From: a virus
IMG/VR virus record: IMGVR_UViG_3300047170_000049
Span: 32,001 to 96,000 of that record
Reading direction: 5' to 3' (one strand)
DNA length: 64,000 nt
Below, piece by piece: positions 22,067 to 53,768 of this stretch. The position numbers were made by a program, and so were the translations under genes. Each line of letters starts with the position of its first letter. The first letter of the stretch is position 1. The notes below the pieces were generated by a model. That model was given only the letters and a program-made list of their open reading frames with translations, was not told the origin of the DNA and searched no databases.

Positions 22067-23602
22067 TTATTTCTTACGTTCGATAATATCGAGCATATCT
22101 TTGATAGTGTCTTTGGGTTTAGGCTGTTCTTCTTTGGGTACCTCTTCCGACTTAGGAAGGTTAGGCTTTGGCATATTTTTAAGTTCAGCTAAAACTCTCT
22201 TAGCTTCTGGCTTTGCTTGTTCTTCAGGTAGTTTGCCCATTTTTGAAGTACCGCGACGTTTAGGTGTTTCACCCCTTGGGGCATGGACACCTTTTTCATC
22301 AGCCTTTTGCATATTCTCAGAATTCATTCGATTTTCTTTGGGTTCATCTTGAGTGGGGCCACCAGCGGCAGAATCGTGCGCTGGCATAAGTGGCTTACCC
22401 ATTTCACTCATTTGCATATCGCACTTATCGAGGCAACGTTTTAGAGCCTTGAGGTTATGCTGTATGGCGTTCTTTTGGAAAATCTTATGGCCTTCTTTTT
22501 GTTCAGCGGGTTTGTTGGCAATCATATGGTCTTCAACCAAGTGCTCAACATTTTCGCCTAATTTAGCATCTTGTTTTTCATCAGGATTAGCTTCACTCAT
22601 AAGAACCTGTGGTTTATTCAAACCGTCTTCTAATGACTCAGCTTTACCAAAGTGGAAAGCATCACGCATGGATTGCTGTGCAGCTTGAGCGCCTGATGGA
22701 GGTGGAGGTGGTGGTTGATTAGAACCGTCTTTTTGTAACTCCGACTTAGGAAGATTAGGTTTAGGCATTTGCTTCAATTGATTGAGCTTTGATTTGTGTG
22801 AAGCGATTGAAGGTACGCCGCTAGCTTGTTGCGCAGCACCAGCATGGCTTTGGCCAGAATTTGGTTGAACAGGAGTGTGAACCCCTTGTTGCATATCGGC
22901 TGGATTACCTTTTAATAGTTTATGCAATCCCTTTAGATGACGGTCGATAGGTTGTGCCATAATGTCTGCCTTTTGTAAGGTTTCTTCAATTGCTTGCAAC
23001 TTTTCTAATACGCTAGCCACGGTTGGCTTATCTTCTGCTTTTTCAAATAATGTTCCAGGGAGTCTGGTTTGAGGGTCAACTTTTTTAACTGGTTTTGGTT
23101 GTGGTTTTGGTTGTTCGGGCATTTTCTGTCCTGCAGCGGCAGCGCCTGCTTGTGCAAAACCATCAATAATGGCTTTAACTGGTTTTTTAACCATATCACC
23201 TAAAGATTTGTGCATTCCCATACCCATTCCCATATTAACTGAAATGTGAGGTGCGGTATTAGCTGGTTTGGCAGGAGCGCCAGTGGAAGTTCCACCAACT
23301 ACTGCGCCTTCGGATTTAGGAAGGTTAGGCTTAGGCATATGAATTAATTGATGCAATTGTTTCAAATGACTTTGTTTAGCTGAGTGATTCATAACCCTGG
23401 AAGCTGCAGCAACATCTCGTTTGGCAGAAACGGGTGTAGTCATCTTGTCAGAAAGTTGTTGGAGCTTGTTAGAGCTTCTGACTTCCATGCCAGCGGTCGA
23501 TTGACCTTTTACATCTGGTCTAGCTGGGTGGACACCTGCCTTATCCAAATCGTAGGATGGTTGAAACTTGTCTTCTTTTTTGAGGTCTTTTTTGTCTGCC
23601 AT
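22067..23602 (-). CDS. disordered repeat protein with three MPKPNLPKSE modules (putative processed head protein)
   Basis: Start MADKKD preferred; K/P/Q-rich; many LxK[A/S] sites. Confidence 0.7.
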   Translation of the reverse strand: MADKKDLKKEDKFQPSYDLDKAGVHPARPDVKGQSTAGMEVRSSNKLQQLSDKMTTPVSAKRDVAAASRVMNHSAKQSHLKQLHQLIHMPKPNLPKSEGAVVGGTSTGAPAKPANTAPHISVNMGMGMGMHKSLGDMVKKPVKAIIDGFAQAGAAAAGQKMPEQPKPQPKPVKKVDPQTRLPGTLFEKAEDKPTVASVLEKLQAIEETLQKADIMAQPIDRHLKGLHKLLKGNPADMQQGVHTPVQPNSGQSHAGAAQQASGVPSIASHKSKLNQLKQMPKPNLPKSELQKDGSNQPPPPPPSGAQAAQQSMRDAFHFGKAESLEDGLNKPQVLMSEANPDEKQDAKLGENVEHLVEDHMIANKPAEQKEGHKIFQKNAIQHNLKALKRCLDKCDMQMSEMGKPLMPAHDSAAGGPTQDEPKENRMNSENMQKADEKGVHAPRGETPKRRGTSKMGKLPEEQAKPEAKRVLAELKNMPKPNLPKSEEVPKEEQPKPKDTIKDMLDIIERKK

Positions 23603-23609
23603 ATAAACC

Positions 23610-24071
23610 TTATTTTTTATCTTTCGCTTCAATGACAACTGGAGAATTAACAAATTCAGGTTGTGTGGTCGTTAATGGAGCATTTTGAATCATAGGTTGA
23701 TTACCAATCCTAGGAGCAATGTCTTTGGCTTCCGATTTGGGTAAATTGGGTTTCGCCATATTCTTAAGGTGATTTAACAAACCACGGTGAATACTTTTAG
23801 CTTTTGCAGCATGTCTCTCAGGGTCACTGACTCGACCGTAGCCGTGTGCAATAACACCTGGAACTTTTGCATCGGCTCTGCGAACTTCAATACCGACATC
23901 GCTTACGCCTGGAGTAACAGTCTTTTGATTCTCTAGGGCATCACGGCCTTCGCTATCAAATTGTTTAAATGCTCCGCGAATCATTCTCTTCTCGGAATCA
24001 CTTACGGTCTTTTTTAGCTCCGCTAGTTTCACTAGACGTTCCAGTATTGCTTTCATCATTAGACTTTCCAC
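23610..24071 (-). CDS. putative head protein with one MAKPNLPKSE module (probable start 24059)
   Basis: Same module as neighbouring gene. Confidence 0.65.
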   Translation of the reverse strand: MESLMMKAILERLVKLAELKKTVSDSEKRMIRGAFKQFDSEGRDALENQKTVTPGVSDVGIEVRRADAKVPGVIAHGYGRVSDPERHAAKAKSIHRGLLNHLKNMAKPNLPKSEAKDIAPRIGNQPMIQNAPLTTTQPEFVNSPVVIEAKDKK

Positions 24072-33499: not shown

Positions 33500-33883
33500 T
33501 TAGAAGGTCTCGCCGTACAAGAACCAAAATAGGCCAATAACACAACCCATTGCGACTACCGCAAAATACACCCATAATATGCGTGGGTCTACGCCATGGC
33601 GCTTACTGCTTAATTCAACATAAGGAATTGTGCCAGTGTGGTGTAATTGGAATTGGTCTGGGTTAATACCTGAATACTCAACAAACCAACCCCAGTGGTA
33701 TGACTTCCAAAGCTCTGGACGGTAAATGTAAACACCATCAGGCTGGCAGTTGAAGGTCGCTTGTCTCATTAGGCCGATGACGTACTGAGGATAGTGCTCA
33801 AAATAAATCTGGGCTAATTCAATACTTCTTTGCTGTTCGGACTGAGGCAGGTCTTGAAACTGCTTCTTCTGATGCTGAGTCAT
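33500..33883 (-). CDS. hypothetical protein with C-terminal TM helix
   Basis: RBS GGAG; hydrophobic C-terminus. Confidence 0.55.
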   Translation of the reverse strand: MTQHQKKQFQDLPQSEQQRSIELAQIYFEHYPQYVIGLMRQATFNCQPDGVYIYRPELWKSYHWGWFVEYSGINPDQFQLHHTGTIPYVELSSKRHGVDPRILWVYFAVVAMGCVIGLFWFLYGETF

Positions 33884-33954
33884 AGTATTCTCCGTGTTGT
33901 TGTTGGTTATAAAATCACAACACGGGGATAAAACGCAGTCAAGGCCAATTTTTA

Positions 33955-34818
33955 TTATCTTGGTCCTACGTTGCCGCCAGTAGGGGCATTGATTTCGGCG
34001 TCGGGTACGTCTTTCTCCGTGCGATTACCTAGGAAAATGTAATCGGCTTGAACTTGAGCTTGCATTGGCATTTTCTGCATTGAGTAATCGCCAGTGTAAG
34101 CGTTCATCTGTGGGAAGATACGGATTTCGTGCATCATCTGCTTGACGTAAAAATAAGGCTTATATTTGTAACGAACAGAAATTAGTTTGGGTTGGTCACT
34201 TGTGTTATTCCAACCAGGTTGTTTACCACCAGGAATCCACGCAATGTGTCCTTGAGCGTCGATATTGAAATCTTGGCCTTCGGTATAGAACTTACCATCG
34301 GAGTCGGTGACATATTCAATTTCTGAAATTTGGAATTGAGTGCGGTCAATGCCAGTCATCGAGTGGGTGACTTTTTCAAAGTTAGAATGGAAGAATTCTG
34401 CGGGGCATTCGCAAGGAATTAACTTATCGTATTCAGTAAACGATGCAAGTTTGGTCGTGCCCTTGTAGTAGCGATTAAATGTGAGCATCGCACTAGAGCT
34501 ACCGTAGAAACCTGCAGGGATGTATGCTAGTTGTTTAGAGTTGTTTGTAAACACTCCCCAAACTTGTCCAGCGCACATATAAACAAATCCATTTTCACAG
34601 TGAGCGGTGGCGTTGCCATCGAAATCGTGATTATGGGAATGACGAATGTCACCATCAGTAACTTGGCCTAAGACGCAAGGGATTGCCTTGTAGTGCCAGA
34701 ATAATACACCATTTTGAATTAAGAAATTATCTTGACCAATGGAATCGACGGTGACCGCGTTCCAAGGTTCTTCATAATTAATTAATACAGCATTTACCGC
34801 TGGTTTTACATCGGCCAT
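33955..34818 (-). CDS. putative head-closure/neck protein
   Basis: PC...HC.NGF segment, YTEGQDF...W...P...SVRY motif typical of neck proteins. Confidence 0.6.
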   Translation of the reverse strand: MADVKPAVNAVLINYEEPWNAVTVDSIGQDNFLIQNGVLFWHYKAIPCVLGQVTDGDIRHSHNHDFDGNATAHCENGFVYMCAGQVWGVFTNNSKQLAYIPAGFYGSSSAMLTFNRYYKGTTKLASFTEYDKLIPCECPAEFFHSNFEKVTHSMTGIDRTQFQISEIEYVTDSDGKFYTEGQDFNIDAQGHIAWIPGGKQPGWNNTSDQPKLISVRYKYKPYFYVKQMMHEIRIFPQMNAYTGDYSMQKMPMQAQVQADYIFLGNRTEKDVPDAEINAPTGGNVGPR

Positions 34819-34821
34819 TTA

Positions 34822-35466
34822 TTACTCCCAGAAATTTCCAGGCAAGTGCCCTTTGGGTACGTTTTTATTTTTCATACGGTAATCATCTTCCAATTTTGAA
34901 CCATGGAAAGGCTGAGGTTCATTGAAGTAGACTTTACCATCGGGGCCTTGTTCTTTGTTGTACATATGTTGAGCACCAAAGGCTTCATGGGCTTGTTGTG
35001 GATTCATGCCTGCCATTTGATAGTGCTTAATTGCTTCGTTCTTATGATACTCACCAGCCAAGTGATTATTAATATCTTTACCTTGGTCGTAGTTATCTTT
35101 ATGGAAGTTTGAAAAGTGAGCGTGCCAATTAGCAATTTTCTTATGGTTCTCAGGAGTGGAGGCGTGTGGCATGGAGCGAAGCTCTGCATCGTGCTGTATG
35201 GACGAGACGTTGCCCCATTGTGGGTTGAATTGCCTATCGGTAGACTTGTAAAGATTCTCGTGCCAGCTAATACCGTTTTGAACCTTATCCGCCATACCCT
35301 TGGCAACGGCACGGTGAGCGGCTTGTCCTAGGACTCTTAGTTCGCCTGAAGCTTTCTTCAAGGCCATAATGTTTAATCCACCCTTGGTACGGATGTGATA
35401 AATAGGGTCGGTCTTGTAAACGCCGACTTGTTCCATAGTGTGAATGTCTTGTTTGTTTAAATTCAT
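34822..35466 (-). CDS. putative head protein
   Basis: TKGGL...AAHRAVA N-domain, LYKS site, His-rich C-domain; after late promoter. Confidence 0.6.
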   Translation of the reverse strand: MNLNKQDIHTMEQVGVYKTDPIYHIRTKGGLNIMALKKASGELRVLGQAAHRAVAKGMADKVQNGISWHENLYKSTDRQFNPQWGNVSSIQHDAELRSMPHASTPENHKKIANWHAHFSNFHKDNYDQGKDINNHLAGEYHKNEAIKHYQMAGMNPQQAHEAFGAQHMYNKEQGPDGKVYFNEPQPFHGSKLEDDYRMKNKNVPKGHLPGNFWE

Positions 35467-35487
35467 ATTTTCCCCTAAAGGACTATA

Positions 35488-35518
35488 ATTAAGATTTTAG
35501 GTTAACCCTTTGATTTTA
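35488..35518 (-). promoter_or_regulatory. late promoter motif copy 7
   Basis: ATTAAGATTT-TAGGT-TAA-CCCTT-TGATTT. Confidence 0.75.
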
Positions 35519-37646
35519 TTGCATCTTTGACGGCTGGAATACCCCATACCCAAATAGAATTAATCAATGAATCAGGGTATTTAGACTGTTTTACCAATTC
35601 TTTGATTTCTTCTAGACGGTATAGTTCAGGGCTTGGGTCTAACTTATATTTAAACATAAGTTCTTTGATGAGGTTTGGGTCTAGACGTAGAATCCAGTCG
35701 CGAAGTTCTTCTGCGACCTTGGGATTTCTAATACGAGGTAGGCCCTGGAACTTAGTTTCATTATTAGAGTTTTGCTTAACGTCATTTTCTACGCGCAAGA
35801 TGTATGGGATGAAGATGTCCGTGTCTTTAGAAGGGTCGAAGGCAAGATTGGCAAAAGAAGACCCGTGGTCAATCATTTGCAAGCCCTTGCCGTTTGTCAT
35901 GACATTACCGCCATGAGAATCAGCTTCGCCTAGGATGTAGAACATGGTGGCTATTTTATGGACAACACCTTCACGGGTGAGTTCGCCAATGAGTGCCTTG
36001 AATTCATGTTCGTCATCTTTTTCAAGGTCTTGCGCTATCTTGTAATCGTCGGGTAGCATTTTGATTGCTACGGCATAGTGAGGCTTACCATCTTTTTGGA
36101 TTTCACCCATAACTGAATGTGGAATGTAATCAACCAAACCAAACACACTATGGGCTAGTTTATAGAAACAGGCTTCTTTAATGAATTGAGGGCCAGTATC
36201 TTTTAAAGACTTAACACCAGGCTTATTCTTAGGTTCGAGTTTTAAGAGCCATGAGTCTTTAGGTTCGTCGCCGACGATAAAGGAATCTGTGGTGAAATGG
36301 CCATAGTGACTTAGGTCATGAATCTTCTCGTCACGGATTAGCGAATTGATATTTTGTGTTGCTACTATGGAGTAATCATCTTGAGTCAGTGGCTTAAAGA
36401 ATTTAATGCCAGCAAACTTTTGTTCAATCTTTTCTAGAAGACCTTCTTCTTTAAGGAAGGAGTCCAGGCTCGAACCTAGATGTTTATTTTCGTTCTTTGT
36501 CATCTTAGGTTTAGCATCGGCAACTTCACCGTAATTATGTATGTTGCCTTTTGCATCACGTTGTGGTTTAGTCTGAAACTTCAGATTTTTAGAGTTGATA
36601 TTGAAACTTGCAGTGGGATGGCCAACAACAATTTCATTTTCATGCGAATGGGGATGTTCTTGGCCTTGGACGGTCATGTGATGACCAGAGTGAAGGACTT
36701 GTTTCAGTGGCACCCATTTGGACATTACCACCCCATGATTATCTGGTTGACCTTCAATATGCCCACGATTATATGCGAACCTCGCTGCCATTTCTGGGTC
36801 CGTTGTCCACGACGTTAAGTGTGCTGTGGGTAATTTTATTTTTTTATCGTCAACCTCGTTAGTTTCGGGGTTATGACCTACTGCATCTTTAATTGCTTTG
36901 CCATAATGCCCACCGACCCCACGATAAAGTTTGACATGAGGCTCACCATGAAAATAACGTTTAGGTGTGAATTTATCTTGCATTATTTCAGCTTGAACTT
37001 TTTTAGCGTACTCATCTAGGTGAGGAAGAACATCAGAGGCTTGCATGAATTTATTGGGGTACTCAAATTTAGTATTTTTTAAATGTTCTAAGGTTTCTTT
37101 GTCATGACCCATCAATCCATCAGGGTTGAGATAAGCTTCGTGACTATTGGCAGATTCGCCACGGTGGTCCGTTACCGTTTCAGGTTGACCCGTGAAATGA
37201 GACTTAATGGTCGCGAAATGACCAGGGCTAACCGCTCTTTCGTAGCTGGACCAAAAATTCCCAACCTTCTTCATGTTTGCCAAGGCTTCATCGGGCGCAA
37301 ATTTGGGATGGGTTTGTATTGCGTTGGTGACGTACTGGTCTTCACGACCTTCGTGACCCACACGCCTTAGTGTGGCAGCATCAGCATGCTTAGGGATGTG
37401 TCCAGCGTATTCAAATAGAAACGAATTGAGATTATCTTTTTGATTAGGACGAGTCTTAAGATGGTCTAGGACTTTGTGAACTGCAGCATTAGGCATACCT
37501 TCGCCGCCGTCATTGGGATTATTGGCCGAAGGAAGGCGCTGCCAAATGTCGTAGTTAGCTGGCACACGTTTAGCATGCTCAATGGCTTTATCCCAGTCAC
37601 CACGATGGATGGCTTCAAAAGTTGCTTTCTCATTTGAGTCAGACAT
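35502..37646 (-). CDS. multidomain protein: ADP-ribosyltransferase-like + HipA/PI3K-like kinase
   Basis: KLYRGV...TSWTTD...ENEIVV (R-S-E ART); LKLE...KEAC...DSHGGNVM...IDHGSSF (kinase). Confidence 0.75.
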   Translation of the reverse strand: MSDSNEKATFEAIHRGDWDKAIEHAKRVPANYDIWQRLPSANNPNDGGEGMPNAAVHKVLDHLKTRPNQKDNLNSFLFEYAGHIPKHADAATLRRVGHEGREDQYVTNAIQTHPKFAPDEALANMKKVGNFWSSYERAVSPGHFATIKSHFTGQPETVTDHRGESANSHEAYLNPDGLMGHDKETLEHLKNTKFEYPNKFMQASDVLPHLDEYAKKVQAEIMQDKFTPKRYFHGEPHVKLYRGVGGHYGKAIKDAVGHNPETNEVDDKKIKLPTAHLTSWTTDPEMAARFAYNRGHIEGQPDNHGVVMSKWVPLKQVLHSGHHMTVQGQEHPHSHENEIVVGHPTASFNINSKNLKFQTKPQRDAKGNIHNYGEVADAKPKMTKNENKHLGSSLDSFLKEEGLLEKIEQKFAGIKFFKPLTQDDYSIVATQNINSLIRDEKIHDLSHYGHFTTDSFIVGDEPKDSWLLKLEPKNKPGVKSLKDTGPQFIKEACFYKLAHSVFGLVDYIPHSVMGEIQKDGKPHYAVAIKMLPDDYKIAQDLEKDDEHEFKALIGELTREGVVHKIATMFYILGEADSHGGNVMTNGKGLQMIDHGSSFANLAFDPSKDTDIFIPYILRVENDVKQNSNNETKFQGLPRIRNPKVAEELRDWILRLDPNLIKELMFKYKLDPSPELYRLEEIKELVKQSKYPDSLINSIWVWGIPAVKDAIKSKG

Positions 37647-39724
37647 TATTTATCCCAGTTGTGCGTCGCGTTCATCATAACGTGCTTATCGTCAATAAGT
37701 ACGTCTTGTGCAGGTTTAACATCATGCTTCTCGTTTTTAACTGAAGCAGGTGAACGTTCGGCGTTCATTGCAAAGTTGCCTAATTTCTTAAATTTGTTAA
37801 ATTTTACCACATAAGGATGGTTCTTGATTTCATCGGGGGTAGCATCAAGTGCGTGGGTAATCCCATTGTACCAAGCGTAAGCCGCTTTATCATGGTCGTT
37901 ACCAAAGCGGTTTAAAAGCCTATGCCAATGGGCATGGACTAATTGCTCTTCCATTTTCTTATTTCCTAAAACCAACTTGGAAATTTTCTCTTGGTCCATC
38001 TTAGGGTCCATTGAGCCAAGTTCAGGATAGAGCTTTTTAATGTGGGGATTCTTCTGGGCAGTCTCAACAATAGTAATAGGCATAAGGCCGTAAGAGCCTA
38101 TGGCTTTCGTGCCAGTGTTGATGCCGTGTACAACTTCAGCGTGCTTTAAATTTTTACCGTTAGAAGATTCAATATTCTTGATGGCATCTAAATCGCCCTT
38201 GGCAGTGTCAACTACTTGGATACCAGGCTGACTCTTATCTTGGCTACTTAAAGCCGTAGGAGCGCCGAGCATTGACATTGCCGTGATAACGTTCATAGCT
38301 TTTGTCTTCATGTTCTTATCCAACCCTTCTGATAAAAGTGTATCATAAGGCTGGCTTAAAGTCTCTATTTTGCTTATTTCCGTATTTTTCCTAACGTTTT
38401 CAATGGCTTTGAGCTTATCTTTTTTAGTAAGCTCCGCTTTCTTAGTGTCTTCAGTGGCTAAAGCCCAGTCAGGAAGCAAACCAGCTTTCTGGTCAGCGTA
38501 AATTGTTTGCGCGGGGTTAGCTCTATTGTGCGCTGCGTGCTTACCAAAGTTAACCCATGAGTTCTGGCCGCGTGTTTCTGAGGTCAGGGCCTTTTGTGCT
38601 TGAGGTGAATACATCTGCTTATGGCTAAGGTATGCGTTCTCTTCGCCTTTGGGACCAAATCCATAACCTTCTTTAGCGTGGCCAAAATAATCGTGGACTA
38701 TACGGAAGAGGTCGTTAGCGGGTAAGTCTTCGCCATTATGAATAACGCCTGAAGGTTTGAGCATTGGGTGATTGGAGTATAGTGAATCTCCAGAACCAAA
38801 ACCTTGTTCGGTAGGGTAGTACCACATATGATTGTTTTGGCGAACGTCTTGGAGCATATCTTTAGATGATTTATAGGGATTAGCCATGTCTGGTCTAATC
38901 TTACTGATTTTTAAACCAGCATTTTTAATGTGATGAAATTGTTCTGCCGTTTCATTGATTAGTGCATTGTAGGCACGTTTAGTTTCAGGATGGTCAGGGG
39001 TGTGGGGCATGGCTTCGTAGGCCGCTGCAATGTTCTTAGCACGAGGCACGTTGACTTCTGCTTGGGTGTCTGGATGATTTAAAGTCAAACCTTTCGACTT
39101 GGCGTAATTGTTAGCGACGCTTCTAATTTTAATATCGGGTTGAGTTGGGGTAGGTGGCTTGAACGCATCTGCCTTGCGAAGGTTACGGTACTCAATCTCG
39201 CCCTTGGCCATCTTATAGCCATTGGCATTAGGCTGCTTGTCAGACCAAAGGACTTTATCTTCTTTCCAAAGCTCTAATGGCTTAACCTTGACGTTTAATT
39301 TGTGTTGGGGCATTCCCGCTTGGACTTTATCCCAAAGGTCCTTATCCACCGTTATATGAGGCTGGAACGTGGGAAATTTATCTGGGCCATAATGGTCTTG
39401 AAGCTTCTTGTTGGCTTCTTCCATATGTTTGATACCAGGGCCTACGAGCTTAAGGACGTGCCATGTCTTACCTTCTGGGGTATTAAACTTATGGGGCACT
39501 AGCTGGAATTGGTCAGGAGGGGTTGTATTGAGTTGATTTAGGTGGTGTTCCATTTGCTTCACGTCGGGCTCATGGGCTCCTAAGTTTCTTAGGGTGACGT
39601 GGTACTTACCGCCATTTTCTGGATTGATAGCTTGGCCGTTGATATGAACGGGCCACATCAAATAGTGCTCTTTCCACGCTGGGTCTTGCGCTTTTACATT
39701 TGAAACACTAGTCTTCGTGGGCAT
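37646..39724 (-). CDS. multidomain protein: 2H phosphoesterase + HDxxGH domain + lytic transglycosylase-like
   Basis: HVTL and HITV; FRIVHDYFGH; IESSNG...AIGSYGLMP...YAWYNG. Confidence 0.75.
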   Translation of the reverse strand: MPTKTSVSNVKAQDPAWKEHYLMWPVHINGQAINPENGGKYHVTLRNLGAHEPDVKQMEHHLNQLNTTPPDQFQLVPHKFNTPEGKTWHVLKLVGPGIKHMEEANKKLQDHYGPDKFPTFQPHITVDKDLWDKVQAGMPQHKLNVKVKPLELWKEDKVLWSDKQPNANGYKMAKGEIEYRNLRKADAFKPPTPTQPDIKIRSVANNYAKSKGLTLNHPDTQAEVNVPRAKNIAAAYEAMPHTPDHPETKRAYNALINETAEQFHHIKNAGLKISKIRPDMANPYKSSKDMLQDVRQNNHMWYYPTEQGFGSGDSLYSNHPMLKPSGVIHNGEDLPANDLFRIVHDYFGHAKEGYGFGPKGEENAYLSHKQMYSPQAQKALTSETRGQNSWVNFGKHAAHNRANPAQTIYADQKAGLLPDWALATEDTKKAELTKKDKLKAIENVRKNTEISKIETLSQPYDTLLSEGLDKNMKTKAMNVITAMSMLGAPTALSSQDKSQPGIQVVDTAKGDLDAIKNIESSNGKNLKHAEVVHGINTGTKAIGSYGLMPITIVETAQKNPHIKKLYPELGSMDPKMDQEKISKLVLGNKKMEEQLVHAHWHRLLNRFGNDHDKAAYAWYNGITHALDATPDEIKNHPYVVKFNKFKKLGNFAMNAERSPASVKNEKHDVKPAQDVLIDDKHVMMNATHNWDK

Positions 39725-39759
39725 TTCTTAATTCCTTAATCTTCTTATGTACTTAAGCT

Positions 39760-39790
39760 ATTAAGATTCTTATATAACCTATCGGAAGCA
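39760..39790 (-). promoter_or_regulatory. late promoter motif copy 8 (variant)
   Basis: ATTAAGATTC-TTATA-TAA-CCTAT-CGGAAG. Confidence 0.6.
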
Positions 39791-39827
39791 TTCAGGAATA
39801 CTTAAGGGATTTATTGTGATTATTTCC

Positions 39828-39854
39828 TAAAGTTTTAACAAAAATTGCCGAATA
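39828..39854 (+). promoter_or_regulatory. sigma28/FliA-like promoter
   Basis: TAAA-GTTTTAACAAAAATT(15)-GCCGAATA. Confidence 0.7.
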
Positions 39855-39866
39855 GTAATATGAAAG

Positions 39867-40082
39867 GTGGTTGTTATGAAAGCAACGTATGTGGTTAAAT
39901 ATACGAAAATTTTCATGAAAGACGCACAACGCTTAAATGAACAATTATGTCAGGTTCAATTCGAGGATAAAGAGAAGGCCAAGGATTTTAAAGAAGAGCT
40001 AGGCATTGAGGCAGGTAAGACCTACCCCACAGGCTTTGGTTGTTTTTATTATGTAGATGAAGCTGAAATTTTAGTTTTGTGA
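39867..40082 (+). CDS. hypothetical protein (probable start ATG 39876)
   Basis: RBS AAGGTGG after sigma28-like promoter. Confidence 0.55.
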   Translation: MVVMKATYVVKYTKIFMKDAQRLNEQLCQVQFEDKEKAKDFKEELGIEAGKTYPTGFGCFYYVDEAEILVL

Positions 40083-40088
40083 GGTCGT

Positions 40089-40697
40089 ATGGCTAAGGTG
40101 GTTAATTTATATAGTTCTTTTGGTTTTTGGACTGAAAACTCTGCGCGATTCCCAAATTTACTTCATAGGTTGGGAATTGAAGTAAACCCAGGACGTTCGT
40201 TAACTTTCAACAAAACATTAGAAGAAATGGAAGCGATTGCAAATGAGCTTGGCTTTACCCCACTTCCAATAGTTCAAGTGGCCTATGGTGATAAAATGCC
40301 ACAAGAAGAGATGGGTAAAATTATTATGGAAGGCAAGTGTGCAGTTGATTTAATCTACTCACACGATTGGGTTAGCCATCTGTTTGCATACTTATTGATG
40401 ACGCCTAAACTTAAACATAACTTACAAGACTTGGTGGTAAATCTACCTCCAGATGGGAAATCTTCCGAATTAACAAAGCAAACCTCTGTTTTTGATGTGC
40501 TTACCGCATTATCAATAACGGAATTATCTACCCAAAAAAATGATGAGGATTTTGCAAAATTTGTTAAATATGCTTTAGAGGCATACGGGGGTGCAAAAGT
40601 TCACATTGAGAATGTGGGTGGATTCGTACACAATTTCAAAGAAGCTAGGGAGAAGGTTTACGAGGTGGAGAATTTTCTAGCGCAGAAAGCCGCTTAG
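40089..40697 (+). CDS. hypothetical protein
   Basis: RBS GAGG; HDWVSH possible metal site. Confidence 0.6.
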   Translation: MAKVVNLYSSFGFWTENSARFPNLLHRLGIEVNPGRSLTFNKTLEEMEAIANELGFTPLPIVQVAYGDKMPQEEMGKIIMEGKCAVDLIYSHDWVSHLFAYLLMTPKLKHNLQDLVVNLPPDGKSSELTKQTSVFDVLTALSITELSTQKNDEDFAKFVKYALEAYGGAKVHIENVGGFVHNFKEAREKVYEVENFLAQKAA

Positions 40698-41602
40698 AAA
40701 TTAGTCATGTAGACTTTTTTGCCCCACATTGCCTTTAGAACGTCCATGATGCTTTCACGCTTGGCTTCCAATTCTTGTGCGCGTAACGCATAGATTTGAT
40801 TACCAGGACCGCTAACGCCTTGGCTAATACCGTCAATACCAATACTTTGAGAGTTGAAACGATAGAGAGGGCCAAGCATGGATAGAACATCTAATGCAGC
40901 GGTGACGCCGATGATGTCATTAATGATTCCAGGGACCGCATTTTCTTCAAACCCGAATGTAGCGCGTATGTAGAAAAATGAGGGAATCCACTGGAGTCTT
41001 GAGAAGACCGCGAATAATGCAGCGGCAGGTCCTGAAGACGCACCAGCTACGATACCCGTGGAATTGAATGTGGTTTGCAAAGGAACTAAGTGGAGTAGAC
41101 CACGGTCAGCATAGGTTAAATCAACCCACTCTAATGGGAATTGATAAAACACCGTACCATCAGTGTCGATGTTACCAGCTTCATTTGAAATATATTGGCC
41201 GTTGATTGTTTGAGCACTATTAACGGCTCGAATAGATACTTCTTCTAGAGAGTACATATTCTTAAAGCCCATATCTAATTGGTTGTAACCTTGAAGATAC
41301 TTTGTGCGGTCGAAATCTTTACGAATGGTACGTTGAACTTGTGTAATATCAACCTTGCATTCAGTTTCAACGCGTGACGTAGCACGGGCTAGTAAATCTT
41401 TTAAAGTGTCATCGTCGAGAACTTGCTTAGTGTAAGGGTGGACCAAGGGGATGCCGAATAGAAATTGCTTTTTAAATTTGTCAACGGAAAGCATAGGCTC
41501 AACACGAGCATAGCCAGCGGTTCCATTCTCACCGTTAAACTTTGAGACTTTTTGTGGAAATCCACCAAATGTATTTTTCTTTGAATTACTATAATCAGCC
41601 AT
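40694..41602 (-). CDS. head-tail adaptor (connector) protein
   Basis: FLFGIPL, Y...GF...VP..I, SQSIGIDGISQGVS motif of gp15/gp6-type adaptors. Confidence 0.7.
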   Translation of the reverse strand: MADYSNSKKNTFGGFPQKVSKFNGENGTAGYARVEPMLSVDKFKKQFLFGIPLVHPYTKQVLDDDTLKDLLARATSRVETECKVDITQVQRTIRKDFDRTKYLQGYNQLDMGFKNMYSLEEVSIRAVNSAQTINGQYISNEAGNIDTDGTVFYQFPLEWVDLTYADRGLLHLVPLQTTFNSTGIVAGASSGPAAALFAVFSRLQWIPSFFYIRATFGFEENAVPGIINDIIGVTAALDVLSMLGPLYRFNSQSIGIDGISQGVSGPGNQIYALRAQELEAKRESIMDVLKAMWGKKVYMTNF

Positions 41603-41745
41603 CTTTTTTCTCTATCTCTTTACGAATTCGCTTCTTAGCTTGCATTCGTTCTTGGTGTTTATATTTTTTGTAAGTCTTACCCTTGACTTTCATATCAGCG
41701 CCGTTGTTTTCAATTAACGTGCGGTGACCACCCATAGGCTTCATC

Positions 41746-42153
41746 TTAGCACTGGTAAAGTGACTGAGGCTGCATAATGAGTACATTATACCCAACTGCA
41801 ATCTTAGTGTTAGCACCTTCGATAAGGGTAACGTTGATATTAACTCCAGCCATATTTTGGGTATCGGCTTGAGCTAAGTTAAAAGCCCAGATTGATGGGT
41901 CTTGTGAGAAGGGCTGGTACATTGTTTTTGTTACGGTGTTAGCATCGTTAATGGAATTAATTACGGCAGTAGCTGTAGCTCCAGTTGCAGGCATGTAGCG
42001 ATTGCCCCATTTGGAATAATCTTGAACGGTGTTTAAATCGACGAATTGTAAATAGATGGTAGTATTCTCACCAGGGAAGATAGTGAGTTGATTCATATAT
42101 TGAAGGTCGTTAACCGTGGTGCCTGAATCTAAAACGCGAAAGCCTAATCTCAT
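41746..42153 (-). CDS. putative Ig-like structural protein
   Basis: Beta-sandwich-like pattern; RBS GAGG. Confidence 0.55.
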   Translation of the reverse strand: MRLGFRVLDSGTTVNDLQYMNQLTIFPGENTTIYLQFVDLNTVQDYSKWGNRYMPATGATATAVINSINDANTVTKTMYQPFSQDPSIWAFNLAQADTQNMAGVNINVTLIEGANTKIAVGYNVLIMQPQSLYQC

Positions 42154-44440: not shown

Positions 44441-46198
44441 CTATAAGTTGGGTAATACGTTAATTTCATTTCCATCTGCACCAGGAATGGTATAAATTCC
44501 ATTCACAGGCGGTGGCACTTCCAAAACTTCTGGAGGTGTCACAGGTACAACTTGAATCGTGTTGGCCGCTCCTTGCGCTACCTCAATCGCGCCGTTTCTT
44601 ATGGTTAAAGGCACTTGGTTACCGTTAGGGTCGGTGTAGGTTAAAACCCCATCGTAATTAACATAAAGACCGTTATTCAGTGCAAGACCATTACCACCAC
44701 CCACATTAACAATCAAACTGCCATCGTTTGGCTGTGTTTTAATATTTAGAGTCTTTAAAAACTCACGCACCTTAACCTCATCTTCTTTGTCGGCGGCTTG
44801 ATTATTGTGACTTCTAAATTCTACTATATTATTGTTCCTAACGTCAATGCAATATTTCAACTTACCTTCGTTATTCCTTATACCAACTATAACCAATTCG
44901 CCGTTAAGCATTCTTTCACCATAGGAAGCAACACAATTATTAAACTCTTGACCCCAGTCGTATAATTCCCATGTGTCTTTAGGGAAGCTAAGGACTAGGC
45001 CATCTTCAATCTGGTGATTATCAGCGGCAAGCCATTCAGGGTTTAAAGTGAATACTTTCTTTTCTGTCTTAAATTTACGGTACTGTCGTGAAACGTAGTC
45101 ATGGAGTTCGCCAAGTGTCTTAAAATCTTCTGGTAAAACTATATCGTTTTCATGCTCCAAATATTGCCTAGTCGTATCCATCAAGTAGCCTTCTTGATAA
45201 GCCGTAAGCATAATCTTTTTAATCTTAAAAGGGCTAAACTTTGCTAAGAACTTTCTAATTTGTTCAGTCATACCAGGCTCAACTTCCGTAAATCCATTAA
45301 AGCCTTTGAAGTTTTCAGTCAAATCAATCAACGGAGCTTTCTCAACCACTTCATGAATGTAGTCGAGCGGGATTAAATCCTTAAGGAGAAATCCAAAATT
45401 AAAAACTTTTAGGCTGAGACGCTCAACCTGGTATAAAGGTGATGATGCCTGGTAATAATCTGAAACTGTCGAAAAGCCAGTGACTTGTGGCGTTATATTG
45501 TCAATTACCATATTGGGATTAAAAACAGCGTTGCCGCCAACTATGTTCATTGCACTAATGGCTTGGGTGTAATTATCGTTGCTTAGTTCATAAAGGCGAC
45601 TAGCAACTAATTTTGTAAGCTTAGGACCGCTAGACCCAAAAGCCTTCTCAATCGCATCTTTAAAAGATGTGAGCTTACCTAATTCAACAATACCCTTTTT
45701 AACTGTATGAACATCAGAGTTGGTAATATTAATGCAGTCCTTCCAAAGAACCTGTGTTATAGGACTCTCAAGACTATTGAAAACTGTATTGATAGAATCT
45801 TTATAGGGCAAAACAAATTTGTGGTCAGGCAAGAAGTGATTTCTTATATACTCTGCAATTGTTGCCTCAGTTTGGTCTTCAAATTTACCCCTGGTGTCAA
45901 CATAAACCTGACTAGTAGAAGTGAGCGTGTAATTATAAGAACTTGATGCTAATGCAAGTCCAGTTTGACGCTCACGCACCCTCTTTTCAAAAAGACCTGA
46001 CACAAAGCTAGCAGGGTGAACTTCGTATGCTACCCCATTCCATACCCAAAACTGTACAGAGCGGTCAGGGTAACGTTGTAGCTTAACTCGTGAGTTTGTG
46101 AGTGAGTTGGGATAATAAGACAAAATTTCTAAGCAATCTGGTTCTTTAGCCAGTGCGTATGCTTTTAAGTCTGAAGCGTCAACAATTACTTCTTGCAT
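44441..46198 (-). CDS. PcfJ-domain-containing protein
   Basis: LHD, PKDTWELYDWGQEFNNCVASY, EFRSHNNQ. Confidence 0.7.
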   Translation of the reverse strand: MQEVIVDASDLKAYALAKEPDCLEILSYYPNSLTNSRVKLQRYPDRSVQFWVWNGVAYEVHPASFVSGLFEKRVRERQTGLALASSSYNYTLTSTSQVYVDTRGKFEDQTEATIAEYIRNHFLPDHKFVLPYKDSINTVFNSLESPITQVLWKDCINITNSDVHTVKKGIVELGKLTSFKDAIEKAFGSSGPKLTKLVASRLYELSNDNYTQAISAMNIVGGNAVFNPNMVIDNITPQVTGFSTVSDYYQASSPLYQVERLSLKVFNFGFLLKDLIPLDYIHEVVEKAPLIDLTENFKGFNGFTEVEPGMTEQIRKFLAKFSPFKIKKIMLTAYQEGYLMDTTRQYLEHENDIVLPEDFKTLGELHDYVSRQYRKFKTEKKVFTLNPEWLAADNHQIEDGLVLSFPKDTWELYDWGQEFNNCVASYGERMLNGELVIVGIRNNEGKLKYCIDVRNNNIVEFRSHNNQAADKEDEVKVREFLKTLNIKTQPNDGSLIVNVGGGNGLALNNGLYVNYDGVLTYTDPNGNQVPLTIRNGAIEVAQGAANTIQVVPVTPPEVLEVPPPVNGIYTIPGADGNEINVLPNL

Positions 46199-47017: not shown

Positions 47018-47260
47018 TCAACTAAATAAAAGGCGTGCCAGTTCGAGTTCTTCCATCTTATTGAGATTAGGCAGCTTTTTCATAGGAGGGATATAATCGC
47101 CAAATTGAATTTTGATGCGCCGTTCGTCTTCTGTAAGGTAGACGCGGTTAACCCAGGCATCTCCTTTATCTAGGTGAAGGCGCGACAAGATAGTTCCTTG
47201 TGTGATTCTTTCACCAGTTTTTAAACTAATGTGTTCACCTAATACGAAGTAGGATTTCAT
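47018..47260 (-). CDS. small protein, LxxLLF family
   Basis: FVLGEHI; ends EELELARLLFS*. Confidence 0.6.
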   Translation of the reverse strand: MKSYFVLGEHISLKTGERITQGTILSRLHLDKGDAWVNRVYLTEDERRIKIQFGDYIPPMKKLPNLNKMEELELARLLFS

Positions 47261-47979
47261 CGGACGTAATCAATTACCGTAATTGGATTACCAGGGAAGT
47301 AGGTCTCATCGCAAATTGCCGCGTTATAGTAGCTAACTCCGTCCTTATGTACTTGAGTTCCACCAGGAGTATGGATATGGCCAAAGATGTGCAAATCAAG
47401 TTCTTTGAGTTGCTTGATTCTATCCATTAAATCCATGCAGCCTAAGTGCTCATCACGCAAGGTGCCATCAGCGTAACTCGTTTGGTCGAGAATACCGTAA
47501 GGAGGTCCATGAGTAATTAAGATATGAGTGTTATCTGGGATAGCTTTCCAATGTGGTACAATAGGCTCTGCAGGCTTCATTTTGCCGTAGCCACAATTTT
47601 CCATACGACGCAAATGACCGCGAGCACGATTCCAAGCCCAGTTAAAGAAGAAAGGTTGAACGGGTGAACCGTAAAAATTAATACCTTCGATTGTTACAGC
47701 TTGGTCTATAAGAAGATGGGCTCTAGGGCATATGTCCGTAAACCACTTAAGACTATCGGGCATGAATTTTTCAAAAGTCTTTTCGTGATTACCTGGAATA
47801 AGAACTATGTGACGAGCTTGGGTTTGTGCGTTCATCCATGTAGCGAACGCTTCAACTTCGTGCTTGTCACCGTGACCAGACCAATCCCCAGCATGGATTA
47901 AAAAATCACACTCGGGAATTACAATTTTATTATGTCGATTATGTGTGTCGCTAATTGCTACGATTTTAAATTGACTCAT
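47257..47979 (-). CDS. metallophosphoesterase (MPPED-like)
   Basis: SDTH, HAGD, PGNHE, THGPP, FGHIH. Confidence 0.9.
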   Translation of the reverse strand: MSQFKIVAISDTHNRHNKIVIPECDFLIHAGDWSGHGDKHEVEAFATWMNAQTQARHIVLIPGNHEKTFEKFMPDSLKWFTDICPRAHLLIDQAVTIEGINFYGSPVQPFFFNWAWNRARGHLRRMENCGYGKMKPAEPIVPHWKAIPDNTHILITHGPPYGILDQTSYADGTLRDEHLGCMDLMDRIKQLKELDLHIFGHIHTPGGTQVHKDGVSYYNAAICDETYFPGNPITVIDYVR

Positions 47980-48202
47980 CTTTTCGCTCCAACCAAGTAA
48001 GAAGACCTGCTATAATCATGTTAGGGCCAGTGCTCAAAGCGCCTACGATTAATTCATAAAGAATAAATCCACCAAGCATCTGGTGCCAATTTTGAGGTTG
48101 TGGAGGCTGCATCATCATTACCGCTCCGAGGGGGAATGAGCCTACGATAGTTAAAAAGTAACAAATGCTAAACCATCGGGACCATCGCTTAATATGCTTC
48201 AT
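47966..48202 (-). CDS. small membrane protein
   Basis: Two hydrophobic helices. Confidence 0.55.
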
Positions 48203-49053
48203 ACTGACACCTTGCCTTTGATTGGTGGGTGATGTTGATAACCGTCTAGGAAAATGTCTGTGATTTTAAAGTCATCAATGTTGGTAATTAATTTATTAAG
48301 CCTGAGCGTTGGGAGTTCTTTTGGAAGACGGGTCATTTGCTCTTTGATTTGGTCAATGTGATTATTGTAAATATGAACGTCGCCAAAGGTGTGTACGAGT
48401 TCGCCCACTTCTAATCCTACAACTTGAGCAATCATGTGGGTGAGTAGTGCGTAAGAGGCGATGTTGAATGGAACACCTAAGAACGTATCGGCACTGCGCT
48501 GATACATCTGACAAGAAAGCTTACCGTTGGCCACATAGAATTGAAAGAATGCGTGACATGATGGTAGGGCTTGGTCTTTAACTTGGTTTGGATTCCAGGC
48601 CGTAACAATCATGCGGCGTGAATCTGGGTTTGTCTTAAGTTGCTCAATAACGTCTTTAATTTGGTCCGTGCCACGGCTACTAGGCCATGCAAAGTTATTT
48701 TTAATGCCATGATAGTCACCATCAAAGTGACGCCATTGGAAGCCATATACGGGGCCTAGGTCACCTTTTTCGTCGGCCCACTCATCCCAAATATGAACGT
48801 TATTATCTACAAGGTATTGGATGTTGGTATCGCCTTTAAGCATCCATAGAAGCTCATGGGCTACGCCGTGAAACCAAACCTTCTTTGTGGTAAGTATTGG
48901 GAATCCTTTAGCTAAATCAAAACGCATTTGATGCCCGAAAAGGCTTATCGTACCAGTTCCAGTACGGTCGTTCTTTTTATTACCTTCGCGTAAAATCTTA
49001 TCACAAAGCTCTAAGTATTGAACATCAACGTGGTTTGCTGGAAAAATCTCCAT
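48199..49053 (-). CDS. thyA: thymidylate synthase
   Basis: [44 protein letters not shown]. Confidence 0.97.
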
Positions 49054-49995: not shown

Positions 49996-51378
49996 TTAAC
50001 TGTTACGGAGGTTGTCGATAAGGATATTGAAGCGAGGAAGTTTAACAACTGTAGCGCAGAATCTAAAGCTAACTTTAGGAATGCTGAGGTCAGTCATAGC
50101 AAGTTGCATTGACTTGTAAGGGCTGAGTTCAGCAATTTCAAGACCGCGCATATCTAACATAAACCCAGTAACGAAACCAGGGGTTTTGTTATTGAGGTCG
50201 ATGAAAGCAGTGGTAGCTCCACCAGAGTTAACTACTCGACCAATCCAACGTAAGCTGCTTCCACCTGCATCTGAACGATACATATTGAAGTGCTTGGCGA
50301 AAACGCCTGAAGCTGGGGTGATGGTAGCAGTTACGCTATTGCCAGAAGCACCAATTGTGATGGGGCTAATAGCAGTTGCAGGGGATTCACCAATTTCGTT
50401 AACTGCAGTACAAAAGTATTGATAAACTTCGTTTGCGTTGAAAGAGGTTGTTCCTGCAGCTTGTGCAAGAGCGATGGTAGGGCTGTTAGGAGCACCGATA
50501 CGGGGACGGGCTACTGCAGTTTTACCAGAGAGGAAACGGCTTGATTCGATGCTAACAACTGAATCAGCTACTGCTTGCTCTTTCAAGCTTGCACCAGTTG
50601 ATTGTTGAGGGCTTCCTGCGAGAACGATACGTTCTTTGGGGAAAGCAATCTTGTTATAAGCGCCGTGTGTCAAGGGGTCAATGTACAATTTCTCAGGAGA
50701 ACCGTGGTTCATAGCAGCTTGTGCATATGAATCTTCGATGATTCCTTGAGAAAGGATACCGTTCTGGTTGAATACGATTGATTTGTTTGAACCGTACTCA
50801 TTGAACATTAAGTCTTGTGTTGAAGACAAATAATCTGATTGACGAATTTGGGGGTCAAGACCTTGCATTCCAGGGGTTGTTGACATTGCGAGGGGGTTAC
50901 CGTCGAAAACGCCAGCATTGCTGAAAGCTTCTTTACCACGGAATACTTCAAATTCGATGTCGCCAGCGATTTTCAATGCACTGTCTGCTTCAGCGCGGTC
51001 TTCGGATTTAACTCCGTCGAAAGCTTGAATCATTGTGGATTGAACAGTCACTCTACGAACTTCAGCGTAGTATGCCATGGGCACCACTGAACGAACATAG
51101 CTTGAGGTTTGTTCTTGTCCGACAGAGCCTTCAAGCACTGCAGAACCACCGAACACACCGTAATCAAGTTGACGGTTGAATTGTACTAAGGTCCCCTTAG
51201 CTGGGTTCACCTTAAGAAGCTTTTGCAACTTAATGTGTTTATCTTCGTAGGTAGCAACGTTCATTACAGGAGAAAGGTCTTCCATCTGTAATGCGCTACC
51301 TTGGTTTAGAGCACTGGGGGATACGTTATATCCACCTGCTTCTAAAGCTTTTTTAAGGGCTTCTAATTGTTCAATCAC
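49996..51378 (-). CDS. major capsid protein
   Basis: LKKA|LEAG...GSALQMEDL N-terminus and Ig-like insertion (YFCTAVNEIGES), as in SPO1/K-like MCPs; order portal-protease-scaffold-MCP. Confidence 0.9.
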   Translation of the reverse strand: MIEQLEALKKALEAGGYNVSPSALNQGSALQMEDLSPVMNVATYEDKHIKLQKLLKVNPAKGTLVQFNRQLDYGVFGGSAVLEGSVGQEQTSSYVRSVVPMAYYAEVRRVTVQSTMIQAFDGVKSEDRAEADSALKIAGDIEFEVFRGKEAFSNAGVFDGNPLAMSTTPGMQGLDPQIRQSDYLSSTQDLMFNEYGSNKSIVFNQNGILSQGIIEDSYAQAAMNHGSPEKLYIDPLTHGAYNKIAFPKERIVLAGSPQQSTGASLKEQAVADSVVSIESSRFLSGKTAVARPRIGAPNSPTIALAQAAGTTSFNANEVYQYFCTAVNEIGESPATAISPITIGASGNSVTATITPASGVFAKHFNMYRSDAGGSSLRWIGRVVNSGGATTAFIDLNNKTPGFVTGFMLDMRGLEIAELSPYKSMQLAMTDLSIPKVSFRFCATVVKLPRFNILIDNLRNS

Positions 51379-52808: not shown

Positions 52809-53768
52809 TTAATGTTTTTTAGAATTATTCAATTTCGCGTAAATTTCCATAGCTTCTGCCTCGTTAGCGGCATAGAGCTTGTTGGCTAGCACAGCTTCCA
52901 CTTTTTCTAAGTTCTCCTCAGATAGGGTAGGAAGATGTTTTCGCATTTCAGTACGGGTTAGCTTCTTTTTCTTGAAAATTTTCACTAACTTAGCTAACTC
53001 AGTATCGAGTCCTTCCTTTTGCAAGGCAGGCCCACTTGAGAGGGCTGAGGGAGTGGCACCCATTCCACCAGCGGAGATTGCCTTTTTAAGTCCGCTGAGG
53101 GCATTGGATAGCTGTGCATATTGGTCAGGTCGTACTGAGTCCTGAATTATATACACTTCATTGTAAGCCGATTTGTGCAAGGATTCGTGGCCACCATTGG
53201 CAGTCGAGTAATCCATAGACTTGCGGACTCCTTGGTGGGATTCCTGCACAAATTCAACTTTGGCGGCTCTATTACAAGGCTTGTGCGTTAGCGCAAGTCT
53301 ACGAATAGCCGTTTCTTTTAAAAGATTTCCTTCACGTTTAACTGTAGAACCTTCAACGCTAAAGCCAAGTTGTTGTTCAACCCCAGCCGATTCAAAGTTG
53401 CGTATAATAGATGCGGCAGCTTTGGCGTTTGGATGATTCTCGTCATCAAAGATTTCTACTTGGCCCCAAATGAGTGGGACCTTGAGTTTCTTAAATGCTT
53501 GTAATTCTTGCTTATTTGAGCAATCTTTTTCGCTAAAGATTTTCTTAGCGTTCATGACCCTACCGACGATAGACTGAAAGCCTTCAAAGCCTTTGTTTTT
53601 CTCATCTTTTAGGTCTTCTGGGTTGATATGCTCCGTATTAACTAGAGCCTTTCCTGAACGTAGCTCTTCTATGTCAGCACCCTTAACATCTAGGACTTCG
53701 CCTGAAGTATCGGGGGTTTGCGCTGAAAAGACACCAGCCAGTATTAGATTTTTCTTAAGGTCACTCAT
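52809..53768 (-). CDS. prohead maturation protease
   Basis: DTSGE, NTEH, GFSVEG, ALTHKPCN motifs of HK97/U35-like proteases. Confidence 0.85.
   Translation of the reverse strand: MSDLKKNLILAGVFSAQTPDTSGEVLDVKGADIEELRSGKALVNTEHINPEDLKDEKNKGFEGFQSIVGRVMNAKKIFSEKDCSNKQELQAFKKLKVPLIWGQVEIFDDENHPNAKAAASIIRNFESAGVEQQLGFSVEGSTVKREGNLLKETAIRRLALTHKPCNRAAKVEFVQESHQGVRKSMDYSTANGGHESLHKSAYNEVYIIQDSVRPDQYAQLSNALSGLKKAISAGGMGATPSALSSGPALQKEGLDTELAKLVKIFKKKKLTRTEMRKHLPTLSEENLEKVEAVLANKLYAANEAEAMEIYAKLNNSKKH

Follow-up and report, generated by a model that had tools for sequence, protein, structure and literature searches.

A probable polyvalent cargo protein with 2H phosphoesterase, HDxxxH and transglycosylase domains in an uncultured relative of Myxococcus phage Mx1

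A three-domain protein encoded in the late gene region

The virus record IMGVR_UViG_3300047170_000049 (IMG/VR) comprises 159,288 bp and was rated complete by CheckV. The window analysed here is a stretch of 64,000 nucleotides covering positions 32,001 to 96,000 of this record, and all coordinates refer to it unless another locus is named. ORF listing and translation revealed a single ATG-started open reading frame (ORF) of 692 amino acids at positions 37646-39724 on the minus strand. The phage is an uncultured relative of Myxococcus phage Mx1, and the product of the ORF is probably a phage-type polyvalent protein of this Mx1-like myovirus, i.e. a multi-effector cargo protein that would be loaded into the head, cut and injected. 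The features of the ORF are listed below, with arrows marking candidate cut sites.

37646..39724, minus strand: whole ORF, 692 amino acids (P0001); heads a minus-strand run of late and virion genes that ends at the tail sheath
39236..39685, minus strand: N-domain, residues 14-163, 2H phosphoesterase fold
39590..39601, minus strand: first HxT motif HVTL, residues 42-45 (H42, T44); H-x-[TS] in 8/8 aligned homologous N-domains
39347..39358, minus strand: second HxT motif HITV, residues 123-126 (H123, T125); PH-[IV]-[TS]-V in 8/8 homologues
39149..39235, minus strand: linker 1, residues 164-192, disordered in the model; candidate cut sites MAK↓GE (K174) and LRK↓AD (K184)
38447..39148, minus strand: central domain, residues 193-426, HDxxxH, phrog_3170
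38678..38707, minus strand: FRIVHDYFGH, residues 340-349 (R341, H344, D345, H349), a helix after a beta-sheet in the model
residues 360-364: GEENA, motif position by script
38210..38446, minus strand: linker 2, residues 427-505, mostly of low confidence; candidate cut sites TKK↓AE (K429), VRK↓NT (K446) and LDK↓NM (K470)
residues 468-471: LDKN, motif position by script
38252..38311, minus strand: helix MKTKAMNVITAMSMLGAPTA (MKTK...APTA), residues 472-491, weakly hydrophobic; conserved leader of the transglycosylase module
37757..38209, minus strand: C-domain, residues 506-656, SLT-type (family 1) lytic transglycosylase; catalytic E519-S520, E519 codon at 38168-38170
residues 517-521: NIESS, motif position by script
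37649..37756, minus strand: C-terminal tail, residues 657-692, disordered in the AlphaFold2 model

A scripted position check found every motif quoted in a preliminary description of this DNA at the place given there. The ATG is preceded, at a distance of about 8 nt, by a ribosome-binding site of the AAGGA type. A full-length homologue from a metagenome is 89% identical, and an exhaustive HMMER search returned 5,473 representative proteins at E ≤ 1e-3 (2,686 at E ≤ 1e-30), nearly all of which matched the central part (residues ~196-425). Because of the full-length homologue and the more than 5,000 relatives of its middle part, the ORF is far beyond chance.

An AlphaFold2 model of the full protein, which rests on an alignment of 46 sequences, contained three confident domains (residues 14-163, 193-426 and 506-656) separated by linkers of low confidence. 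The predicted local distance difference test score (pLDDT) was below 50 at residues 164-192, in most of 427-505 and at 657-692. Among 200 proteins fetched, the central block was present in 195, the C-terminal block in 32 and the N-terminal block in 8, in varied orders and with many other partners. The order 2H-central-SLT was found again in homologue P0002 and in the 39% identical homologue P0007. The three blocks fold independently and are evolutionary modules in their own right.

The N-terminal 2H phosphoesterase domain

The N-domain has a 2H phosphoesterase fold with an intact HxT/HxT tetrad. This assignment had been made in the preliminary description from the motifs HVTL and HITV, and both are kept in all eight homologous domains aligned. 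Fold and paired H-x-T/S motifs are common to the C-terminal 2',5'-phosphodiesterase of rotavirus VP3, LigT/ThpR, YjcG, Usb1, plant CPDase, a phosphodiesterase of Burkholderia phage BCSR5 and Acb1; a literature search on BCSR5 found no paper on its phosphodiesterase. Profile matches of the N-domain to Pfam 2_5_RNA_ligase2 (PF13563), TIGR02258 and phrog_755 ('RNA ligase', E 3.6e-5) are weak yet concordant and may be taken as suggestive. Stand-alone homologues with a size of 101-324 amino acids were searched for and none was found.

The preliminary description had gone further and called the domain Acb1-like. The Acb1 family has been delimited by BLASTp and is characterised by the tetrad H44, T46, H113 and T115 (PMC9117128). 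The corresponding tetrad of the N-domain is H42, T44, H123 and T125. Acb1 enzymes cut cyclic di- and trinucleotides 3' of adenosine independently of metal and possess a C-terminal lid. It might be thought, then, that the N-domain is a true Acb1-family nuclease directed against the cyclic-oligonucleotide-based anti-phage signalling system (CBASS), and that hydrolysis of 3'3'-cGAMP, cA3 and related signals is the main role of the protein. Apart from the tetrad, the compact 2H fold resembles that of Acb1 (PMC9117128), and the Acb1 structures 7t26 and 7t27 were among the Foldseek matches (E 9e-3 to 5e-2). Moreover, 2H domains in polyvalent proteins have already been described, with either an RNase role or the degradation of defence-related nucleotides proposed for them (PMC5512222). 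Related polyvalent proteins carry mCpol, NUDIX and S-adenosylmethionine (SAM)-lyase-like modules, which suggests a nucleotide-signalling theme. However, a tblastn search with the N-domain against 50,697 phage records found no Acb1 even at E ≤ 10; the only matches were an 'RNA ligase' of PaBG and one hypothetical protein. In structural comparisons VP3, LigT, Usb1 and CPDase outranked the Acb1 structures, which were absent from the best 50 VIA matches. The label could not be upheld on these grounds, and we consider it unlikely that the domain is an Acb1 nuclease in the strict sense. The comparisons place the predicted enzyme in the 2H superfamily only and not specifically in the Acb1 family; hydrolysis of cyclic nucleotides by it is possible.

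The transglycosylase domain and the helix preceding it

The C-domain has the lysozyme-like SLT catalytic fold with the catalytic pair E519-S520, in agreement with the lytic transglycosylase domain of the preliminary description. The glutamate (E519 in NIESS) is kept in all aligned homologues and is mostly followed by Ser, in a few by Thr or Arg. Homologue P0026 matched the Pfam SLT profile PF01464 with 25.3 bits (cut-off 21.3). With the family 1 lytic transglycosylases Slt70/Slt and MltE the C-domain shares the fold of the catalytic domain, the Glu-Ser pair and motifs resembling GLMQ and AYNxG. It is, however, only about 20% identical to them, lacks the superhelical U and L domains and, unlike these enzymes, has a conserved, weakly hydrophobic helix and a linker rich in Gln and Pro in front of it.

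This helix (residues 472-491) is the most hydrophobic stretch of the protein. It belongs to a conserved unit in which L-[ED]-K and a turn rich in Lys are followed by the helix (about 14 residues, small or hydrophobic, with a Pro at the end), the Q/P-rich linker and the SLT domain. The unit of helix and SLT domain was found in about a dozen homologues, either deep in the interior of proteins as long as 2,471 residues or near the N-terminus (P0122, P0131 and P0110). In the preliminary description the stretch had been regarded as similar to a signal peptide. A conserved hydrophobic helix ahead of the SLT domain is indeed present, but it is not a classical signal peptide, being internal and having a Kyte-Doolittle mean over 19 residues of 1.05, compared with the usual 1.6 for a membrane span. 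The features of a Sec signal peptide or of a signal-arrest-release (SAR) anchor are lacking in several respects: in addition to the internal position, the core is too weakly hydrophobic, the methionine M472 is not conserved (homologues read G-M-L, S-V-N, G-I-K or G-V-K at this position) and the ribosome-binding site is poor. We read the helix as a leader of the SLT module that would be exposed by cutting after the conserved Lys.

Two other roles of the helix have to be weighed against this reading. The protein could remain uncut, be ejected whole and span the inner membrane via residues 472-491, so that the 2H and central domains would face the cytoplasm and the SLT domain the periplasm. The helix is conserved in front of the SLT domain, and the Lys-rich flank on its N-terminal side (DKNMKTK) fits an N-in/C-out topology according to the positive-inside rule. 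On the other hand, its hydrophobicity is under the threshold for a membrane span and its hydrophobic core has only about 14 residues. In P0122, P0131 and P0110 the helix and the SLT domain near the N-terminus are followed by more than 200-1,500 residues of other domains, which such a topology would wrongly put into the periplasm. Furthermore, the conserved L-E-K immediately before the helix resembles a cut site. A role as membrane anchor of an uncut protein is thus weaker than the leader reading and seems improbable to us. Alternatively, translation could start internally at M472 and yield the SLT part as an endolysin that is secreted or of the SAR type, with the rest of the protein acting as a cytoplasmic late enzyme. 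There is an ATG at residue 472, preceded by GAAGGG and followed by a signal-like n-h-c pattern. Nevertheless, the purine-rich run stops 12 nt short of the ATG, a distance too great for a good ribosome-binding site, and in homologues the module sits well within proteins of far greater length. An internal start is unlikely because of this spacing and the missing conservation of the methionine; taking the long homologues into account as well, we give it hardly any credence.

The central HDxxxH domain

The central domain is abundant, extremely conserved and confidently modelled, has no recognisable relative and is the most interesting element of the protein. Modelled on its own it gave a pLDDT of 93.3 and a predicted template modelling score (pTM) of 0.91. 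About 25 polar residues are near-invariant across 200 copies, including H241, E258, D293, H319, N337, D338, R341, H344, D345, H349, E361, H368, E383, Q387 and N388. Residues E361, E362 and H368 are located on the helix that comes next after the FRIVHDYFGH helix. The preliminary description had taken this region for a probable metal-binding enzyme of unknown function. This view is supported, metal binding being probable; PHROGs lists the domain as phrog_3170 without an assigned function.

Searches for a named relative gave little. With 43 members of the domain no match was obtained in Pfam at E ≤ 5, and none was found in NCBIfam. A profile search of the PDB sequences yielded low-complexity artefacts only, BFVD uncharacterised phage proteins only and the ESM Atlas, searched by features and by structure, unnamed clusters only. 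Among the domains named in the main text of PMC5512222 there was no match. Structural comparisons, including the Foldseek check that the preliminary description had suggested, brought up minigluzincins, YbeY and the metallopeptidase domain of ArdC as the sole recurring matches, but no significant relative of solved structure. An aromatic amino acid hydroxylase (Biopterin_H), a kind of enzyme whose catalytic domain has an H-x4-H...E iron triad, had also come into view through the H-[ED]-x-x-G-H motif and the top rows of Foldseek. These rows were insignificant (E 0.16-1, TM 0.17-0.19) and neither VIA run listed such an enzyme; the idea was dropped as unsupported.

The minigluzincins, YbeY and the metallopeptidase domain of ArdC resemble the central domain in the order helix, sheet, His-bearing helix and acid-bearing helix. 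The domain might be a zincin-like metallopeptidase in derived form that serves polyvalent proteins as their hub 'MPTase' and cuts the polyprotein itself. Zincins of this kind have a catalytic Glu in HExxH (or HExxxH), whereas the motif here is H-D-x-x-x-H, with Asp at position 345 in 196 of 200 copies and Glu in none. The profile of MPTase-PolyVal (PF18818) matched 0/43 members of the domain at E ≤ 5 and nothing in the whole phage genome at E ≤ 1; the three giant homologues scanned contained no MPTase-PolyVal either. Moreover, some 25 invariant polar residues exceed the needs of a self-processing peptidase. In our opinion the peptidase explanation is doubtful, and the distribution of the cut-site motifs described below also speaks against it. 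We tentatively suggest that the central domain may be a new enzyme family, possibly with a new fold, and that few cargo modules of phage polyvalent proteins may be as widespread.

The distribution of the domain is very broad. It forms more than 5,000 clusters at 50% identity, and 40-60% identity is kept across phages and other elements of Proteobacteria, Cyanobacteria, Actinobacteria, Planctomycetes, Bacteroidetes and bacteria of the candidate phyla radiation (CPR). Contigs carrying it were assigned to more than 10 bacterial phyla, CPR lineages included. It is present in giant podovirus proteins of the internal-virion type (gp16 of Octadecabacter phage BD1 and the 'large polyvalent protein' of Planktothrix phage Pag-Yong1) and in cluster C mycobacteriophages. 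Four actinobacterial plasmids encode it in proteins annotated as 'hypothetical'. This breadth suggests that the target is a universal host molecule, reached via an undescribed takeover or counter-defence activity. Fusion partners include GNAT, NUDIX, ART-PolyVal, mCpol, SAM-lyase-like/DUF3293, PI3K-like kinase, LPD38, DUF7178 and SLT domains.

Two individual loci may be added. On a Paraburkholderia saeva contig (L020:811-3993) a central-domain protein of 1061 amino acids has as neighbours a gene of the primase type (DUF5906) and two genes for partition (RepB/ParB); the locus is a plasmid-like or integrative element and not a phage head module. Homologue P0027 carries mCpol (minimal CRISPR polymerase) and DUF5661 at residues 292-402, fused to the central domain. 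Enzymes of nucleotide signals are common partners of the domain, namely mCpol and, in other relatives, SAM-lyase-like/DUF3293.

Gene context and comparison with Mx1

The ORF lies in a same-strand run with genes for the terminase, portal, head maturation protease, major capsid protein (MCP) and sheath. The genes around it are as follows.

58326-60161, minus strand: terminase
55256-57274, minus strand: portal
52812-53768, minus strand: head maturation protease
49999-51378, minus strand: MCP
47257-49053, minus strand: thymidylate synthase and metallophosphoesterase, between the MCP and the tail-side genes
44441-46198, minus strand: protein of 585 amino acids with a PcfJ-like domain (PF14284, E 7.8e-13), within the structural region
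39867-40697, plus strand: two ORFs of 71 and 202 amino acids with no family match, breaking the minus-strand virion run directly upstream of the 692-residue ORF
35502-37646, minus strand: next gene, 714 amino acids
18914-21709, minus strand: tail sheath, downstream of the 692-residue ORF

DNA-level searches found no close phage relative. The sole cultured relative found was Mx1, whose sheath is 40% and whose MCP is 55% identical. The two phages have a common gene order with a slot between the MCP-side genes and the sheath. In Mx1 this slot is occupied by a 'NUDIX hydrolase' of 1479 amino acids (WNM70333.1), which shares with the 692-residue protein only the SLT module (29% identity over residues 511-664) and the linker motif L-x-K-[AS]-E. 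Unlike the protein described here, it possesses neither a 2H nor a central domain, and its other modules differ; no copy of the central domain was found in Mx1. Each of the three domains is present in a single copy in the genome of our phage. The different modules in the same slot, the lack of the central domain in Mx1 and the single-copy state of the domains indicate that the slot holds an exchangeable cargo cassette.

In both phages the gene next after this slot is of the kinase type. The C-terminal part of the 714-residue protein is 26% identical to the Mx1 'kinase' over residues 442-705, and the protein has a weak NCBIfam match to the type IV secretion system (T4SS) effector PI3-kinase RisK1 (E 1.1e-4). 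It contains one MTK↓NE site (K384) between its halves and is probably a second cargo protein. Mx1, too, has a thymidylate synthase gene, directly after that of its MCP. The small plus-strand island has no counterpart there; it is separated from the 692-residue ORF by an intergenic gap of 140 nt. A scan of positions 33500-41800 for sigma-70 promoters and terminators gave results at chance level.

Linker motifs and candidate processing

All four hydrophobic-x-Lys-[ASTGN] sites of the protein (K174, K184, K446 and K470) fall within the linkers (157 residues), and the domains (535 residues) contain none. A fifth candidate site, TKK↓AE (K429), likewise lies in a linker. The same tendency was seen in 199 copies of the central domain with their flanks, in which [LIMV]-x-K-[ASG] occurred at about 0.036 per residue at 5-15 residues upstream of the domain and at about 0.026 at 5-25 residues downstream, compared with 0.0057 overall. 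This amounts to an enrichment of about 6-fold immediately before the domain and about 4.5-fold immediately after it. The motif was seen in 78 of the 171 upstream flanks examined and in 76 of the 162 downstream ones, mostly in the form h-x-K-[AS]-[ED] and frequently in tandem.

Within the genome the strict motif is densest in a protein of 528 amino acids (7 sites), the portal (4) and a scaffold-like protein (3). The 528-residue protein (22067-23653, minus strand) has no family match and, with 7 strict and 11 relaxed h-x-K-small sites, is the densest in the genome by far; it may be a head-internal protein that is cut into many peptides. The N-terminus of the MCP reads LKK↓ALEAG at residue 10 and that of the Mx1 MCP (L001:385-1785) LRK↓AMEAG at residue 14. 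Cutting at this candidate maturation site, which is conserved between the two phages, would remove only about 10-14 residues. The occurrence of the motif on capsid, scaffold and portal proteins as well points to cutting by the head protease.

The preliminary description had argued for processing of the protein, since its domains would act in different compartments. The h-x-K-small motifs of the linkers, including the LDK↓N site (K470) named there, fit proteolysis. It is here that the comparison between lineages bears on the self-processing peptidase mentioned above. In the podovirus giants the central domain occurs without the junction motif, whereas in the polyvalent protein of Mx1 the junction motif occurs without the central domain. 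The motif thus travels with the lineage and not with the central domain, and presumably goes with the head protease of the lineage. This supports processing as such and weakens the case for a peptidase activity of the central domain.

A probable polyvalent protein

Polyvalent proteins are a kind known since Iyer et al. 2017 (PMC5512222), as which the preliminary description did not recognise the product of the ORF. They include 2H and lysozyme-type domains, are located among late virion genes, and a counter-signalling role has been predicted for them (PMC5512222). The protein agrees with this kind in having three disparate domains in one polypeptide, several unrelated enzymatic activities per chain including a 2H and a lysozyme-superfamily domain, and a late virion location that is syntenic with Mx1. 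Its homologues carry ART-PolyVal, LPD38, GNAT, NUDIX and kinase domains as do the proteins of PMC5512222; the central domain co-occurs with ART-PolyVal and LPD38, and one record is annotated as 'large polyvalent protein'. Shuffled versions of the 2H, central and SLT modules recur in hundreds of other phage polyvalent proteins. In contrast to the published examples (PMC5512222) the protein has no MuF, portal or canonical MPTase-PolyVal domain, and its hub is an HDxxxH domain outside Pfam.

A number of observations count against a cut and injected polyvalent protein with the domains assigned here. The 692-residue protein gave no match to the SLT profile PF01464 at E ≤ 0.1, and the matches of the N-domain to PF13563 (E 1.5e-4, 22.3 bits) and TIGR02258 (E 5.9e-4, 19.8 bits) are under the cut-offs of 27 and 65.7, respectively. 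The central domain has no significant similarity to any solved structure (Foldseek, VIA). The motif counts near the central domain are not independent events because the homologues are related, and genome-wide the strict motif occurs 31 times against 20.5 expected from shuffling, only a 1.5-fold excess. Cleavage and packaging into the virion are predicted from motif and gene context, and any substrate named for the 2H domain or activity named for the central domain is a guess. Weighing all this, we still regard the polyvalent reading as the probable one.

A comparison with phage T4 is helpful at this point. The head cargo of T4 (internal proteins and Alt) is cut by the prohead protease gp21 at L/I-x-E. 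This cargo is made late, has short protease sites, is packed into the head and is injected, as is proposed for the 692-residue protein. The candidate motif in our phage differs in that Lys would occupy P1 and a small residue P1', and the precursor would join several effectors into one chain.

The following course of events can be proposed for the polyvalent protein. It would be made late and loaded into the prohead, where the head maturation protease (52812-53768) would cut it at hydrophobic-x-Lys↓small sites, i.e. at K174 or K184, at K429 or K446, and at K470. At the next infection the pieces would exit together with the DNA. The SLT piece would open the peptidoglycan, while the 2H piece would hydrolyse a 2',3'-cyclic or 2'-5'/3'-5' phosphodiester substrate in the host. 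This substrate might be an immune signalling nucleotide, RNA ends being the likelier target. The central domain would be a metal-dependent hydrolase whose target is shared by widely differing bacteria.

As a whole the protein would be an ordinary, if tidy, instance of phage polyvalent cargo. Its small size, its three modules and the clear predicted fragments make it a substrate for asking whether the head proteases of Mx1-like phages cut at hydrophobic-x-Lys↓small. It also provides a compact copy (pLDDT 93) of a central domain that occurs abundantly in phages from many phyla and has neither a family name nor a solved relative. Once known, the chemistry of this domain would give thousands of phage proteins an annotation in a single step, and it could reveal a new action of phages on the host at the moment of entry.

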